Shown piece after piece: positions 1 through 5,913 of a DNA stretch of 32,225 nt. The stretch comes from a virus (taxonomy: Duplodnaviria > Heunggongvirae > Uroviricota > Caudoviricetes). The translations under genes and the position numbers were made by a program. The DNA lies in the IMG/VR virus record IMGVR_UViG_2541047764_000008. One strand, given 5' to 3'. Within the stretch, counting starts at the first letter, position 1. Each line of letters begins with the position of its first letter. The notes below the pieces were generated by a model. That model saw only the letters and a program-made list of their open reading frames with translations, made no database searches and was not told the DNA's origin.

Positions 1-17
1 AACACGAGCAAACAGAT

Positions 18-45
18 AAAAAAGGGCCAGCCAATTGGCCAGCCC
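18..45 (-). terminator. Rho-independent terminator candidate downstream of the ATPase/HNH cassette
   Basis: On the minus strand, 24-45 reads GGGCUGGCC-AAUU-GGCUGGCCC (9-bp stem with two G-U wobbles) followed by a U6 run (plus-strand A run 18-23). It lies about 180 bp past the stop of the 230..1108 ORF. Confidence 0.5.
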
Positions 46-229
46 TTCTTAACAGGATGTCGCTTAAGCGAAACCTTAGTTAAGACGCTCCTAATCAAAA
101 CTCATAGAAAGCACACATTTACCATATAAAACAATTAGTTAATTTAATTTTTAATGCAGTGAATTGCAATGTTATGCAAGCTCTGCCGCCATACTGCCGC
201 CACTTTAGATTTACTCAAAAATCCCATAC

Positions 230-1108
230 TTACTCATAGGTAGCAGATGAAATTTCAATCATTGACGATCTTTCAAAAATTTGCTTACCATTATTAAGAA
301 ATGTAGGGGACGAGAGAAGGGCATCGAGAGTCAACCATTGCCATAGATCGATCGTATACCTAGATTTAGGATAATCCTTGGATCGGGCATTCAGTAAGTC
401 ACGTTTAATCTCTATCATTTCATGCAATGATAAATTTTTAAAAGTAGCATTCCTGACCAATTCCTTAACTAAGCTAATTGCCTTCGCACTGAACGTGTCT
501 AGTATGCCGAATTTTTTAACATGAAATAACACTCTTTTATATTCAACTGTATTTTTCTCATAGTTAATTTGAAAATAAATTACATTATCCATTTCAGAAT
601 ATACAGCCGTTAACCAATTGTAATTATAGAACTGATCAAATAACGGATGAATTAATTGATTTTCTTTTGAAAGAGAGAAATATTTAGATTTCATTCTATT
701 GCAGTAATCACAAGCAGGGATAAGATTATTATAGGATATAGAAAGGGATGGAAAATCTTCTTTTGGTAAAAAATGATCTAACGTACTGGCTTCACCAATG
801 TGACATAACAAACATTTTTTATTCGGGCTTCGGCGAAGTAATTCATCATAATATTTTCTAGGCTGTGTTCTTTTTTTTGACAGCCTTTCATTATAAAGCC
901 TTAATAACTCAGACGAATCAAAACCTGCCGTCTTTGATATATCTTTAAATTCATAAAGCAGTCCATAAATTGCATGAATTTTGTAAATCTTGTGACAAGC
1001 CCTCAAGTATTCCCCTTGATCCTTTTCTACTTGAGTAAAGTCTCTATTGCGCCGCCCTACTACGCAACTCCTATATACATCATCAAATTTAACATGCATC
1101 CTCTTCAC
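230..1108 (-). CDS. HNH-nuclease-domain protein, second gene of a two-gene ATPase + HNH cassette (Septu PtuB-like architecture)
   Basis: 292-aa ORF with an HNH-type motif at residues ~99-140 (CLLCH...DHFLP...NNLIPACDYCNRMK). Its GTG start overlaps the upstream ATPase stop as GTGA; an ATG at 1099 is an alternative start. Markedly AT-rich by eye. Confidence 0.6.
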   Translation of the reverse strand: MKRMHVKFDDVYRSCVVGRRNRDFTQVEKDQGEYLRACHKIYKIHAIYGLLYEFKDISKTAGFDSSELLRLYNERLSKKRTQPRKYYDELLRRSPNKKCLLCHIGEASTLDHFLPKEDFPSLSISYNNLIPACDYCNRMKSKYFSLSKENQLIHPLFDQFYNYNWLTAVYSEMDNVIYFQINYEKNTVEYKRVLFHVKKFGILDTFSAKAISLVKELVRNATFKNLSLHEMIEIKRDLLNARSKDYPKSRYTIDLWQWLTLDALLSSPTFLNNGKQIFERSSMIEISSATYE

Positions 1109-2583
1109 CCTTTATTTTTTATAGCAGAGTAAACAACAGCACGCCCTTCCAAGCCGATCTGATTATTATATGCATTAAACACTGCACCAGCACTTGTATA
1201 TTTTTTGGAATCCTCCTCCAATAGAGAATAGAAGCCTGACTTTCGCATATCAAGGTTAAAAACTTCAGATGTAATTTCTCCTACCCCCTCGCCGAATGTT
1301 TCTATTGTTGGCCGCTGAAATTCAGCCTCTATATCGCCTGAGCGAAACATTTTCCAAATACAAGCTTTAGGTGTTTCTTGAAGAACTACTGGAGAGTGAG
1401 TGGCAATCACAGCCATCCCATTGTTTTCTTTCAGTATCTCAGACAACGTTCTAATAAATGCGGAAAGTAAAGGAGGATGCAAATGATTCTCTGGCTCATC
1501 GAAGATACATATTGTTTTATTTTCTATTAACTCAATAACATGAGTAATGTAGTATATTACCGCCGCATGCCCTGAGCTCAACGATTTAAAGATGGTTGTT
1601 GATGCATGTGTAAACTCCTCTTGGCTAACAGTGATGAGATTTGAAAGTCCTAAATCCTTAAAATTCACATCAACTTCTAAAGTCTCTATTATTCTAGTCC
1701 ATGTTCCTTTTTTTATTTCAGATCCATATATGCAATTATATAATGACTTGGAAAAATCATTAGCCAAATCATTGTTTATATCCTTTAGTTCTCCGCTACC
1801 TTGTTTATAGAGACCAATATATTTTTTCTTTGTTTGAGTTGTGCTAAACCTAACATCATTAAAATCAACATTTTCAAAAGGTTTATCAAAAACACTTAAT
1901 GAAAAATACAATAACAAACCAAAATCATAAACTGAGACAGGATCACCATTTATCTTTGTTACAACATAATTACTTTTATCGATATTTTCAACAATTGTTC
2001 TTAGTAAATGGCTTTTCCCTACCCCATTACGCCCAATGATTACATGGACATTTTTTGGCGGTTTAGAATCAGATTCCACGATAAAATCCGGCGAAACACC
2101 ATTCTCATAATTAACACGAAAACCGAAATGTCTCAATGAAACGCCAGACTGCAAAATGTCTCTAAACTGCATAACACTTGATATACTTACATATCTAGTG
2201 AGTGAGTCAACAAATACACTTTCATCCCTTACATCTTCAAAAATATTTTCATCATAAACGATATCTCTCAACCTAGTTAAAAGTTTCACCCGAAATTCTT
2301 GAGGCAAATTCTTTAAGGCCGAATAGTATTCTGGAGATTGTCCAAGTGAAAAATAATCATTAGCCAGACTATCAAACTCTGCATCTAACTTTTTATATGT
2401 ATGAACTGATTTCTCTTGTCTCTTAAATCCTATTTTAACCTCTCCAACCTTTACAACATTACTACCATGAGAATAATGTAGTAAAAATGAAGTTTCAAAT
2501 GAAAAATCATTCCAATTGGTTATTGGAGTTAGATATATTATAAATGTCGAATTTGATTGAGGAGGGCCAATTTTTATAAACAT
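1105..2583 (-). CDS. ABC-type (AAA_15/21-like) ATPase with ~180-aa N-terminal extension, first gene of the ATPase + HNH cassette (OLD/PtuA/GajA-like ATPase fold)
   Basis: 492-aa ORF with Walker A GRNGVGKS (184-191), signature-like LSSGH (335-339), Walker B ICIFDEPE (358-365) and H-loop ATHSP (393-397). GGAG sits 6 nt upstream of the ATG. The start is only 37 bp downstream of the int stop on the same strand. AT-rich by eye. Confidence 0.65.
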   Translation of the reverse strand: MFIKIGPPQSNSTFIIYLTPITNWNDFSFETSFLLHYSHGSNVVKVGEVKIGFKRQEKSVHTYKKLDAEFDSLANDYFSLGQSPEYYSALKNLPQEFRVKLLTRLRDIVYDENIFEDVRDESVFVDSLTRYVSISSVMQFRDILQSGVSLRHFGFRVNYENGVSPDFIVESDSKPPKNVHVIIGRNGVGKSHLLRTIVENIDKSNYVVTKINGDPVSVYDFGLLLYFSLSVFDKPFENVDFNDVRFSTTQTKKKYIGLYKQGSGELKDINNDLANDFSKSLYNCIYGSEIKKGTWTRIIETLEVDVNFKDLGLSNLITVSQEEFTHASTTIFKSLSSGHAAVIYYITHVIELIENKTICIFDEPENHLHPPLLSAFIRTLSEILKENNGMAVIATHSPVVLQETPKACIWKMFRSGDIEAEFQRPTIETFGEGVGEITSEVFNLDMRKSGFYSLLEEDSKKYTSAGAVFNAYNNQIGLEGRAVVYSAIKNKG

Positions 2584-2620: not shown

Positions 2621-3643
2621 TTAGAGTAAATTACTTAGAGGATTTAGTGTAACCGCATCCTCTAAATGCTCGGGAGAAAAGTGGGCATATCTCATCGTTT
2701 CACGAATATTAGCGTGGCCAAGAATGCGTTGCAATACAAGGATGTTCCCACCATTCATCATGAAATGAGACGCGAAGGTATGTCGTAATACGTGGGTCTT
2801 TTGCCCTTCAGCCAACTCAATAGATGTCAAAGCTAGCATCTTTTTAAAGTCTTGGTAGCAGGATTTAAACATCCTTCCTTGACGTGTGGATAGTTCGTCA
2901 TAGAGCCATTTAGGAATCGGAACAGTTCTATTCTTCTTACCTTTGGTTTTGGTGAAGGTCAGCTTGTAGGGTGAGAGTTGAGCGCGTGTAAGCCTCTCGG
3001 CTTCTCCCCATCGTGCACCGGTTGCCAAACATACCTTAACAATCATCGTAAGATTTTCTTTGCCATATTGTTCACAGGCTCGGAACAGCTCCGGGAGCTG
3101 AGACAAAGTTAGCCAGGACATTTCTTTCTCAGCTTCTTTGAATACGCGAATCCCGTCCAGTGGATTGGGTAAACTCCACTCCCCTAATCGTCGCAGTTCA
3201 TTGAACACTGCTTCGAGGTATTGCTGCTCGCGATTGACAGTTATAGGTTTGGCGATCCACTTCGCCGGGTCTTTGTGATAGCCGTTGTCTATTTCGCCAC
3301 GTAATCGACGGTCACGGTAATGAGCCCAATCTTTAGCGGTAAGACGAGATGCAATAGGGTCGCCCAACCCGTTACATACGATTTGAAGCTTTGCCAACCG
3401 CGACTTACTGGCTACTAACGCCTGACCGTGCAAATTGTGCCAAAGCTGAATAATCTCACTTAAGCGTCGGCGGTCTTCTTTCTTGCCGAGCCACGGCTTA
3501 TCTTCACTCTCGCTTTTGGTAAATGCTTCGAATGCCTCGGCCTCACCTTTGGTATTGAATTGACGACGTATACGCCGCCCTTCCCGGCCATTTGGATAAA
3601 GCTCACATAACCATTTACCATTTTTTTGCTTACTTACTGTCAT
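2621..3643 (-). CDS. int: Tyrosine integrase (P2/186 Int family)
   Basis: 340-aa ORF; the C-terminus carries the catalytic-region signature HVLRHTFASHF...LGHANIRETMRYAHF typical of tyrosine recombinases. It sits downstream of the repressor on the same strand, as in P2/186. Confidence 0.9.
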   Translation of the reverse strand: MTVSKQKNGKWLCELYPNGREGRRIRRQFNTKGEAEAFEAFTKSESEDKPWLGKKEDRRRLSEIIQLWHNLHGQALVASKSRLAKLQIVCNGLGDPIASRLTAKDWAHYRDRRLRGEIDNGYHKDPAKWIAKPITVNREQQYLEAVFNELRRLGEWSLPNPLDGIRVFKEAEKEMSWLTLSQLPELFRACEQYGKENLTMIVKVCLATGARWGEAERLTRAQLSPYKLTFTKTKGKKNRTVPIPKWLYDELSTRQGRMFKSCYQDFKKMLALTSIELAEGQKTHVLRHTFASHFMMNGGNILVLQRILGHANIRETMRYAHFSPEHLEDAVTLNPLSNLL

Positions 3644-3666
3644 AGCTACACCGAGGCCAAAAAATA

Positions 3667-4005
3667 TTATTCACACAACGCTATAGCTTCACTGAAAATC
3701 GGGCCAATATCAGCGCTTTCTAATGAATCGTTAGGGTCTTTTTTAAGAACTTCTTTTAAATCTCGCCCTTCCATTTTTCCTGATTTGACGGCGTTTTTAG
3801 CCATACCGCTTAGGGGGTATCGTTCATCCGTATCAATGTCATAAACAAAAACGTAGTGACTATTTACACAAGATACCTTTGCATGCTCAAAGGTCAGCGG
3901 CCATTTATCACCAAAAGATTTAATATCAATCTCTTTGAACTTTTCAGCGGCAAAGGTTGAGGAAGAGAGTGCAATACAGATTATTCCAAATAAAAACTTT
4001 TTCAT
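3667..4005 (-). CDS. Small secreted/periplasmic protein (moron) between repressor and integrase
   Basis: 112-aa ORF with a classical N-terminal signal peptide (MKKFLFGIICIALSSSTFA followed by AEK) and two Cys in the mature part. AT-rich relative to flanking int and cI. No family assigned. Confidence 0.55.
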   Translation of the reverse strand: MKKFLFGIICIALSSSTFAAEKFKEIDIKSFGDKWPLTFEHAKVSCVNSHYVFVYDIDTDERYPLSGMAKNAVKSGKMEGRDLKEVLKKDPNDSLESADIGPIFSEAIALCE

Positions 4006-4014
4006 TACTGCTCC

Positions 4015-4878
4015 TTAAACATGCTTTTCCAAGGTAAAGATAACTGCACCTGATGGTGTGATATCAGAGAGATTACATTCAAACTCAGCAGACTTATTTG
4101 ATAGCCTGACCTTTCCACCTGGCATTCTGATTACGTCAAAAATATCGAGCGCACCATCAATGCCAATAAGCCAACGACCATTTCCTATCTTTGAGTTAGA
4201 ACAATCAACAAGCCAAGATGCGCCAACTCCATCAATAAAGACCAACTCATCAATGTTTGCAGGAACCATTGAAAGGTCTGGAGTCCAACGCCCAATATCT
4301 TTTAACTCACCAGCTTCAAGACGACATTTTCTTACTGTTAAGGCGTTAAGTGATTCACCCTCTTTGCTGTCTCGCATTTGGCCTTTTCCTGTAGATAGCC
4401 ACTCTAACGATACGCCAGTATCGAGTGCGCAGGTCACAACCACATCGCCAGGGAAGAAGTCACGCCTAACCCAAGTGCTAATAGTACCGGAAGAAATACC
4501 TAATAAATCACCAAGCTCTTTTTGCATCGTAAAACCATAAGCATCCAGAATCCTACGCAAAACGGTTTTACCGCCGTTCGTCATAATCTCGTCATAAAGC
4601 TCTTTGCCTTTTAACTTGCAACCGACTCGCCCATGATTTGCATTTGCAAGCTCACCACTTACAAGCCAATTAATATCAGCGCCCGTGTCAAGACAACACC
4701 TAACTATGATGTTGCCAGGTATTGCATCGCGTTGAACCCAGCCGCTAACGCTATGTTTCGCGATTCCTAGCAGGTCAGCCAAATCCTTTTGCATCTTGAC
4801 GCCATAGGCTGACATTAAGCGCTCTAATACGCCATTTGACGCACCTATGCGCCACTGAACATCAAGCTCAGAACTCAT
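4015..4878 (-). CDS. cI: CI-like immunity repressor with tandemly duplicated N-terminal HTH domain
   Basis: 287-aa ORF. Residues ~17-75 and ~107-165 are an obvious internal repeat (LERLMSAYGVKMQKDLADLLGIAKHSVSGWVQRDAIPGNIIVRCCLDTGADINWLVSGE versus LRRILDAYGFTMQKELGDLLGISSGTISTWVRRDFFPGDVVVTCALDTGVSLEWLSTGK), each resembling the 186-type CI HTH module, followed by a C-terminal domain. It is divergent from the early operon. Confidence 0.7.
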   Translation of the reverse strand: MSSELDVQWRIGASNGVLERLMSAYGVKMQKDLADLLGIAKHSVSGWVQRDAIPGNIIVRCCLDTGADINWLVSGELANANHGRVGCKLKGKELYDEIMTNGGKTVLRRILDAYGFTMQKELGDLLGISSGTISTWVRRDFFPGDVVVTCALDTGVSLEWLSTGKGQMRDSKEGESLNALTVRKCRLEAGELKDIGRWTPDLSMVPANIDELVFIDGVGASWLVDCSNSKIGNGRWLIGIDGALDIFDVIRMPGGKVRLSNKSAEFECNLSDITPSGAVIFTLEKHV

Positions 4879-4907
4879 AAAAACCCCTACAGATAATTTT
4901 ATGGGTG

Positions 4908-4936
4908 TTTACAGAAAACTTTTTACGATCTATAGT
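4908..4936 (+). promoter_or_regulatory. Candidate early rightward promoter (pR/Pe-like) in the lysis-lysogeny switch region
   Basis: TTTACA (4908-4913), 17-bp spacer, TATAGT (4931-4936), upstream of an AGGAG RBS and the ATG at 5000. It lies in the intergenic region between divergent cI and the early operon. The partner leftward promoter was not confidently located. Confidence 0.45.
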
Positions 4937-4999
4937 GGCACTTATCGACCAAGATGCACACCACTGCACTACATTTCAAACAACAGGAGATAATGCGAT

Positions 5000-5353
5000 A
5001 TGTCAGATGCAAAATCAATCCCGCTGCATGACGCACAAAACTTACAAAATCAAACTGTATTGCTAGACGCTGGTCAGTTCAATGCGCTTGTAACCATGAT
5101 GCAGCTATCCATGCAAAACATGATTCGTACAGCGATGTTAGACACCATGTCAGTAAAAGACTTCGCCGCCGCCCGTGGCGTTAGCGAGCGTCTGGTCTGG
5201 CAATGGATTGATGAGGGCGTCCTTCTCAAAGCTCCCACCAAAGATGTTACCAGCAAAGAAAAAGCCGCTAAGCGTGGCCGCACCCTTATCAACGTCAAAG
5301 CATGGCGTGACAAACTGACCCAGCAAGCTATCGATTGCCGTTATATCAACTAA
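5000..5353 (+). CDS. Apl/Cox-like early regulator (HTH DNA-binding protein)
   Basis: 117-aa ORF, first gene of the rightward early operon in the position of P2 cox / 186 apl. It has a central HTH-like segment (VKDFAAARGVSERLVWQWIDEG) and an AGGAG RBS. Confidence 0.5.
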   Translation: MSDAKSIPLHDAQNLQNQTVLLDAGQFNALVTMMQLSMQNMIRTAMLDTMSVKDFAAARGVSERLVWQWIDEGVLLKAPTKDVTSKEKAAKRGRTLINVKAWRDKLTQQAIDCRYIN

Positions 5354-5403
5354 CAGTCATCGCTTAACTGAACTTGATTTTGCAAGTTAAAGGGAGTTAC
5401 AGC

Positions 5404-5913
5404 ATGTTAGATTTTCGTGTTTCGTCACATGCGCACTTTGACGAGGCCTGCAGAAAATTCGCAGCTACTCATAACGTGAAAGAACTAGCGAATAAAGCCG
5501 GAATCAAGCCGCATACGCTTTACAACAAACTCAACCCAGAACAGCCGCACCAGTTAACGCCGCGTGAAATCTGGACGCTGACAGACTTGACCGAAGACTC
5601 GACCCTCGTCGATGGTTTTCTGGCGCAGATCCATTGTCTGCCATGCGTACCGGTCAACGAACTGGCAAAAGAGAAACTGCAATCCTACGTCATGCGCGCA
5701 ATGAGTGAACTTGGCGAACTGGCAAGCGGTGCAGTTTCCGACGACCGCCTCACGCCAGCCAGAAAACAAAACATGATTGCTAGCGTAAATGCGGGGATTC
5801 GCATGTTGTCATTATCGGCAATGGCGCTGCATGCGCGTCTGCAAACTAATCCCGCTATGTCGAGCGTGGTCGATACCATGAGCGGTATTGGTGCATCCTT
5901 CGGGTTGATTTGA
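5404..5913 (+). CDS. cII: CII-like transcriptional activator (186 CII / CP76 family)
   Basis: 169 aa from the ATG at 5404 (AAAGGGAG RBS 8 nt upstream); the ORF track's longer form starts at a TTG at 5374. Its position after the apl-like gene and segments such as LTDLTEDSTLVDGFLAQIHCLPCVP match my recollection of 186 CII. Confidence 0.6.
   Translation: MLDFRVSSHAHFDEACRKFAATHNVKELANKAGIKPHTLYNKLNPEQPHQLTPREIWTLTDLTEDSTLVDGFLAQIHCLPCVPVNELAKEKLQSYVMRAMSELGELASGAVSDDRLTPARKQNMIASVNAGIRMLSLSAMALHARLQTNPAMSSVVDTMSGIGASFGLI

Follow-up and report, generated by a model that had tools for sequence, protein, structure and literature searches.

A YebY/DUF2511-family gene between the repressor and integrase genes of a PSP3-type prophage, with a possible role in the periplasmic exclusion of P2-like phages

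The small gene located between the immunity repressor gene cI and the integrase gene int in the analyzed DNA (32,225 nucleotides in total, hereafter the window) almost certainly codes for a member of the YebY/DUF2511 family that has the YebY fold, is exported by the Sec pathway and is soluble in the periplasm. Very likely, the gene lies in the middle of a lysogenic operon (cI-DUF2511-int) in a PSP3-type Eganvirus prophage and would be expressed together with the repressor. As to its function, periplasmic protection of the lysogen by exclusion of incoming P2-like phages was favored over damping of copper uptake, with a probability of roughly 0.35.

The window is a P2-like prophage of the PSP3 type (Eganvirus, Peduoviridae). 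It contains a cI gene with two HTH domains, a gene at the Apl/Cox position, a 186-type cII gene, gpA and the P2 structural genes. The product of the gene at the Apl/Cox position (117 aa; 5000-5353, plus strand) matched only phrog_3554, labeled 'unknown function', and gave weak Cox-like hits; the PSP3 protein at this position is a singleton (PMC3448106), which agrees with the result for the window.

The features of the gene under study are as follows.

3667-4005, minus strand: gene of the DUF2511/YebY family (homologue of PSP3 gp28, phrog_2950), ATG start, 112 codons and a stop codon
3949-4005, minus strand: predicted signal peptide, residues 1-19 (MKKFLFGIICIALSSSTFA), of non-lipoprotein type by sequence rules, with cleavage before A20-E21-K22
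3670-3948, minus strand: predicted mature periplasmic domain with the YebY fold, residues 20-112, about 10.5 kDa, pI about 5.0
3868-3870, minus strand: codon of Cys46, which matches the first disulfide cysteine of YebY in the alignment
3673-3675, minus strand: codon of Cys111, which matches the C-terminal disulfide cysteine of YebY in the alignment

The initial annotation had described a 112-aa ORF with a Sec signal peptide between cI and int on the lysogenic strand. The position was confirmed, with an ATG start on the minus strand, and by sequence rules all features of a signal peptide were present. The n-region was M-K-K, the h-region comprised 13 residues (F4-S16; Kyte-Doolittle values of 1.7-2.0 in 11-residue windows), and the c-region T-F-A was followed by A-E-K, so that small residues at -3 and -1 satisfied the -3/-1 rule. 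This n/h/c layout, together with the 'AAEK' junction, was kept across 35 alleles. Judging from the sequence rules, the layout shared by these alleles and the periplasmic homologue YebY, the product is predicted to be exported by the Sec pathway. A lipoprotein reading was rejected: there was no lipobox, and C10 was preceded by G-I-I and was variable among homologues. The ORF also described earlier as having two cysteines has three in its precursor (C10, C46 and C111); the description holds for the mature protein, since C10 lies within the cleaved signal peptide. C46 and C111 were invariant in the close family and, in an alignment of 61 family sequences, showed a conservation of 90% or more. A plus-strand ORF overlapping the gene (3626..3844, 72 aa) was taken as spurious because the family signal was carried by the minus-strand frame.

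With the Pfam DUF2511/YebY profile (PF10709), for which the cut-off is 21 bits, the protein scored 53.4 bits (E=3.6e-14), and the match covered positions 6-87 of the 87 in the profile. Its full length matched phrog_2950 (E=3e-47), which PHROG labels 'unknown function'. In a phmmer comparison with E. coli YebY (PDB 7N0J), 80 residues were aligned, including both cysteines (E=1e-6). An AlphaFold (AF2) model built on the 61-sequence alignment had a pLDDT of 87.8, which exceeded 93 for most of the mature domain versus about 56 for residues 1-20, and it contained four strands and three main helices. By Foldseek, this model matched the 7N0J structure of YebY with a TM score of 0.91-0.94 and an rmsd of 1.0-1.3 Å over 91-93 residues. 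The second-best fold match was MlbQ (2MVO/6QFP; TM 0.50-0.73), and beyond these two proteins nothing was found in the PDB at E <0.8. An earlier AF2 model based on 16 close sequences (pLDDT 71.5; TM 0.5-0.6 and rmsd of about 7 Å to YebY) was discarded. The protein had no match in NCBIfam or among the PADLOC defence models, and no viral protein in BFVD resembled its model.

Thus, an above-threshold Pfam match, the cysteine pair, an export signal and the fold of YebY and MlbQ were all found in the sequence or the model. YebY is periplasmic, and its two conserved cysteines form a disulfide (PMC8689200); by analogy, a C46-C111 disulfide probably holds the fold of the window protein. The homology and structure searches that the initial annotation had proposed led in this way to a family that it had overlooked. 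The identity itself is not new because public records already label the gene as DUF2511, and one phage record names its product a putative periplasmic protein. The window protein therefore adds a member to a known family, in which it represents a distinct allele class.

The following features define the surroundings of the gene.

4015-4878, minus strand: cI immunity repressor gene, 287 aa, two Phage_CI_repr HTH domains and a CI_C domain; first gene of the lysogenic operon
2621-3643, minus strand: int, P2-type tyrosine integrase gene, 340 aa; third gene of the operon
4006-4017, minus strand: junction where the cI stop codon TAA (4015-4017) overlaps the Shine-Dalgarno sequence AAGGAG (4011-4016), with a 5-nt spacer to the ATG
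4879-5018, unstranded: switch region, with a pR-like plus-strand promoter (4908-4936, 10/12) that faces the candidate pL
5018 to 4990, minus strand: weak and tentative candidate pL, TTGATT-17-CATTAT, 8/12

The distances reported initially were exact by coordinates: 9 nt separate the cI stop codon from the DUF2511 start codon, and 23 nt separate the DUF2511 stop codon from int. A TAAGGAG or TAAGGGA layout at the cI/DUF2511 junction, with the ATG 5-6 nt after GGAG/GGGA, was found in 56/56 loci, and a junction of this sequence appears to be of the translational-coupling type. In one of these loci (L035, 3559-4000), an insertion of about 440 bp lies between cI and the DUF2511 gene, and the TAAGGGA-type ribosome binding site is retained. 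No consensus promoter or terminator flanked the ORF, the hits in the region being at or below shuffle expectation. Promoters placed face to face in the switch region are the architecture of P2-like phages (PMC7498355). Because the gene lacks transcription signals of its own and the cI stop codon overlaps its ribosome binding site, its product should accompany the synthesis of the repressor. Transcription from the leftward lysogenic promoter would include the gene together with cI and int. Translation of the gene would be coupled to the termination of cI translation, so that the amount of its product would be tied to that of cI translation, and the protein would be made whenever the repressor is made, that is, at the establishment of lysogeny and throughout it.

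To follow the gene in relatives, 51 IMG/VR loci and 4 annotated or assembled loci were compared with the window (56 loci, that is, 55 relatives). The order cI, DUF2511, int was the same in 55/55 related loci, and the search for loss or disruption of the ORF in close relatives, suggested as a possible refutation, found it intact in all of these PSP3-type loci. Pairwise dN/dS values (Nei-Gojobori) were 0.10-0.25 for the DUF2511 gene, 0.04-0.25 for cI and 0.02-0.09 for int. By these sequence comparisons, the DUF2511 gene is real and under purifying selection. Positive selection was unsupported, given these pairwise values and the saturation of dS between allele classes.

It is hardly credible, considering the strong conserved Shine-Dalgarno sequence, the ORF being intact in all loci, the low dN/dS, the Pfam membership and the confident predicted fold, that this is a functionless ORF, whether spurious or a hitchhiker in decay. 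Such an explanation could appeal to two alleles. In the allele pair L055/L056, tryptophan replaces the C-terminal disulfide cysteine (C111W, ...ALWE), and this allele may be an inactivated or differently folded variant. In the window-type allele, N66 and W87, whose conservation in the family is 90% or higher, are lost (N66S and W87L); given these substitutions, it may differ in behavior from the rest of the family.

The DUF2511 gene was the most divergent gene of the operon. Its product in the relatives was 46-64% identical to the window protein, where the integrases were 89-96% identical and the repressors 68-85%. In comparison with phage SW9, nucleotide identity was 95-98% over most of int, 54-66% over the ORF and 77-82% in cI; it fell within about 60 bp, and the breakpoints flanked the DUF2511 gene. 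Such a steep change at the gene borders therefore points to a cassette-like exchange of alleles. Since dS was saturated between the classes, the alleles appear to be old and shuffled by recombination rather than fast-evolving in place. The window itself is a mosaic: the 5' third of cI (about 300 nt) resembles PSP3 (89-96% identity), and the remainder of cI, like the ORF and int, matches a Klebsiella prophage at 92-98% identity. Prophages of Klebsiella, Enterobacter and E. coli shared the allele class of the window, with 84-94% identity. Several individual classes are on record from two or more host genera; E. coli carries more than one class, as does Salmonella.

Among 50,697 phage records, the DUF2511 gene was found in only 10, all of the PSP3 type and always between cI and int; they include PSP3 (gp28), SEN1, SW9, SI22, Midge, RCIP0057 and 613R3. 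A further 126 phage records with a related cI gave no DUF2511 match. RE-2010 has cI and int side by side, with no DUF2511 gene between them, and in 4LV2017 an unrelated 349-aa gene follows cI. The proteins encoded by the operon-position cargo genes of 4LV2017 (349 aa) and RE-2010 (401 aa) had no Pfam or PADLOC match.

These data bear on the initial description of the gene as an inserted moron that is more AT-rich than its neighbors. The composition was as described: the GC content of the ORF was 0.375 (GC3 0.33) versus 0.444 for cI, 0.463 for int and 0.512 for the window, and the low-GC dip extended over the 3' part of cI. Together with the absence of the gene from the 126 records with a related cI and from RE-2010, this fits the description. 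What does not fit is that the gene has no promoter or terminator of its own, is fixed in 55/55 PSP3-type loci and is paired with a repressor gene again in distant relatives. Therefore, it is to be regarded as an old member of the operon and not as a recent insertion.

The distant pairing emerged from an exhaustive profile search, which gave 559 clusters (50% identity) at E <=1e-3, only one of them, of the Eganvirus type, below 1e-30. A search of genome contigs with the close-family alignment gave one locus, in Enterobacter vonholyi. Genomic context was sampled for about a dozen subfamilies among the 559 clusters; identities to the window protein and contexts are listed below.

Pantoea subfamily P0173: 51%; gene order cI, DUF2511, int
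P0018 type (L067): 31%; DUF2511 gene 9 nt after a cI gene that is 59% identical to that of the window, followed by a bPH/SHOCT gene
Pseudomonas subfamilies P0177 and P0047: 25-29%; directly after a small HTH repressor gene on the lysogenic strand, adjoining gpD-gpU-tape measure
P0184: 25-29%; arrangement as in the Pseudomonas subfamilies
L066 (67% relative of P0177): 24%; near the P2 tail genes gpD, gpU and tape measure
P0021 type, L073: 29-33%; adjoining gpD, gpU and tape measure
P0021 type, L072: 29-33%; an XRE-like HTH ORF, identified by eye, lies about 1 kb upstream
Rahnella members: 35-40%; beside ogr, at the other prophage end
P0207: lower identity; island with integrase and transposase genes
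P0117, P0202 and P0206: lower identity; chromosomal or IS-rich settings
P0033 (YebY type): 27%; no IMG/VR relative

Subfamily P0019 likewise had no relatives in IMG/VR. In the Rahnella loci L058-L060 and L062, the DUF2511 gene lies at the ogr end and is convergent with the tail genes. One of them, L058, is a truncated remnant beside the host gene mug that runs from the tail-assembly chaperone gene through gpD and includes ogr; its DUF2511 gene is intact, and cI and int are absent.

All subfamilies outside the host yobA-yebZ-yebY operon (non-AZY subfamilies) whose context could be read as phage were located in P2-like prophages, most of them right after a repressor gene. The P2-borne subfamilies were 23-41% identical to each other, and the Pseudomonas prophage copies were 34-41% identical to E. 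coli YebY. Because the identity between the subfamilies was not above their identity to YebY, the phage and AZY forms look like one continuum. In the literature search, no paper tied DUF2511 or YebY to phages, the word 'phage' was absent from both YebY papers, and a survey of P2-like regulatory regions did not mention the PSP3 gene. The systematic pairing of a repressor gene with a DUF2511 gene in P2-like prophages was not found in the literature searched. Nor was it found stated there that much of the non-AZY family is prophage-borne, as may be the case.

Instead of the lysogen, the protein might serve the phage itself, for example through an envelope function when lysogeny is established or when the prophage integrates and excises. 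Its fixed place between two lysogeny genes in 55/55 loci would suit such a role, as would the cII gene beside the switch (5374-5913), which by analogy with phage 186 implies transcription of the operon in the establishment phase. However, a periplasmic protein is out of reach of the cytoplasmic repressor, integrase and DNA, close relatives with cI-type switches manage without the gene, and the truncated Rahnella remnant keeps an intact copy without cI and int. A role in the phage cycle was therefore considered improbable.

The main rival to exclusion starts from YebY, which is encoded by the third gene of the E. coli yobA-yebZ-yebY (AZY) copper-import operon and acts on import (PMC11923076). 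The prophage protein could bind a CopC/CopD-type importer (YobA/YebZ) and, like YebY, damp copper uptake, a form of lysogenic conversion. The near-identical fold, the shared export signal and cysteine pair and the purifying selection are in agreement with this, as is the fact that the Pseudomonas prophage copies are as near to YebY as the phage subfamilies are to each other. Moreover, YebY co-expressed with YebZ lowers copper accumulation (PMC11923076). However, the window protein is only 26% identical to YebY, no copC or copD neighbors were present at any prophage locus read, and the copper binding of YebY itself is weak and its deletion phenotypes are mild (PMC8689200). In addition, a gene that benefits the host would be expected in many phage types, whereas this one was seen in P2-like phages only, and very diverse alleles circulate among hosts whose presumed target is expected to be similar. 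On balance, copper damping appears unlikely, although less so than a role in the phage cycle. If it took place, lysogens would import less copper, which would be relevant to killing by macrophages and protozoa and to mar induction.

The operon holds other cargo too, which in the window lies downstream of int.

230-2583, minus strand: Septu-like defence pair, on the same strand as int, separated from int by 37 bp and located within the prophage end
1105-2583, minus strand: PDC-M01A/PtuA-like ATPase gene of the pair (E=2e-158)
230-1108, minus strand: PDC-M01B HNH protein gene of the pair (E=8e-142)

Window positions 1-205 match the region downstream of the host gene yfiB (613R3 record), and part of them matches every E. 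coli genome; the pair is therefore placed between int and the prophage end. Its GC content is 0.33. The 3' end of int (2621-2900, minus strand) is unlike that of all 55 relatives, with 32-59% identity over the last 130 nt or so; insertion of the defence cassette at this place is the apparent reason. The window integrase has 340 aa versus 347-349 in the relatives and keeps the catalytic RYAHF motif. In other loci, a gene for a bPH_3 and SHOCT domain protein (166-168 aa) follows the DUF2511 gene (4355-4861 in L031-L034; 3619-4119 in L067). Therefore, the cI-int operon accepts further cargo.

The exclusion of other phages was ranked first among the functions for four reasons. Among phages, the gene turned up in none but P2-like ones, whose hosts span two bacterial orders; it remains beside the immunity gene; its unusually diverse alleles are swapped as cassettes; and the operon holds other cargo, including the Septu-like pair in the window. 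This pair is the one neighbor that supplies guilt by association, since the other operon-position cargo was unmatched. As a small binding protein acting stoichiometrically in the periplasm, the DUF2511 protein would guard the envelope of the lysogen, most likely by interfering with a periplasmic infection step of other P2-like phages (passage of the tail tube or tape measure, or DNA entry). Related R-type tailocins might be blocked too. The protein would thus be a superinfection-exclusion partner of the immunity repressor and not a regulator of host metal.

Several findings count against exclusion. The sole characterized Gram-negative homologue acts on copper import (PMC11923076), and no described defence or exclusion protein in PADLOC, PHROG or BFVD is similar to the window protein. 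Since dN/dS is well below 1, the gene carries no direct arms-race signal, and its old divergence could reflect neutral lineage sorting and recombination. The sample of genomic contexts was small, and some DUF2511 members were found in non-P2 settings. The window-type allele, with its substitutions N66S and W87L, may also depart from the behavior of the other members.

A broader, and doubtful, extension of the exclusion reading is that DUF2511 is an ancient partner of the repressor across P2-like phages, from Enterobacterales to Pseudomonas, with the AZY protein YebY as its domesticated offshoot or its source. Immunity would then have two layers: repression in the cytoplasm and, in the periplasm, a barrier against incoming P2-like phages or R-type tailocins.

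Because the gene sits in the repressor operon, its product is probably made in every such lysogen, and prophages of this group are widespread in Klebsiella, E. coli, Salmonella and Enterobacter. For YebY, the only Gram-negative relative studied, a role in copper import and in mar-linked antibiotic resistance is weakly defined. If exclusion is the function, P2-like phages possess a periplasmic exclusion factor of a new kind; if it is copper damping, they tune the copper handling of the host. Either outcome would give the DUF2511 family a function.

Among known systems, E. coli YebY shares with the window protein the Pfam family, size, Sec signal peptide, aligned cysteines and soluble periplasmic state (PMC8689200). 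The two differ in sequence (about 26% identity), the window protein having S66 and G67 where YebY has asparagine and aspartate; W87 is lacking in both. They also differ in location: AZY orthologues are co-encoded with CopC (YobA) and CopD (YebZ), whereas the window gene lies in a prophage immunity operon, away from copC/copD homologues, with cI and int as its neighbors. PSP3 gp28 and its homologues in SEN1, SW9, SI22, Midge, RCIP0057 and vB_EcoM-613R3 share its place, length and signal-peptide layout. Their amino acid identity to the window protein is 47-63%, although the flanking genes are much closer.

MlbQ, the Microbispora lantibiotic self-resistance lipoprotein, shares the fold and Pfam family; it is the only other characterized DUF2511 protein and was proposed to bind the lantibiotic NAI-107 (PMC8689200). 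By this precedent, the window protein might sequester an envelope-targeting peptide or toxin (a bacteriocin, microcin or lantibiotic-like compound) in the periplasm and make the lysogen resistant, and diverse alleles would suit diverse ligands. However, MlbQ is lipid-anchored, Gram-positive and linked to a lantibiotic cluster, and none of this holds for the window protein, which has no lipoprotein anchor. No lantibiotic-cluster genes were found within the window, and no bacteriocin or lantibiotic genes lay near the DUF2511 gene at any locus. Immunity of this kind would also leave the exclusive link to P2-like phages unaccounted for, and it seems a poor candidate for the function.

Exclusion proteins of the envelope that are encoded by prophages and expressed in lysogens include HK97 gp15, P22 SieA, T5 Llp and phi80 Cor. 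These are membrane proteins or lipoproteins, whereas the window protein is predicted to be soluble in the periplasm, and no similarity to them was found. What it would have in common with them, as a functional analogy only, is that a small envelope-located protein is encoded in or beside the immunity region.
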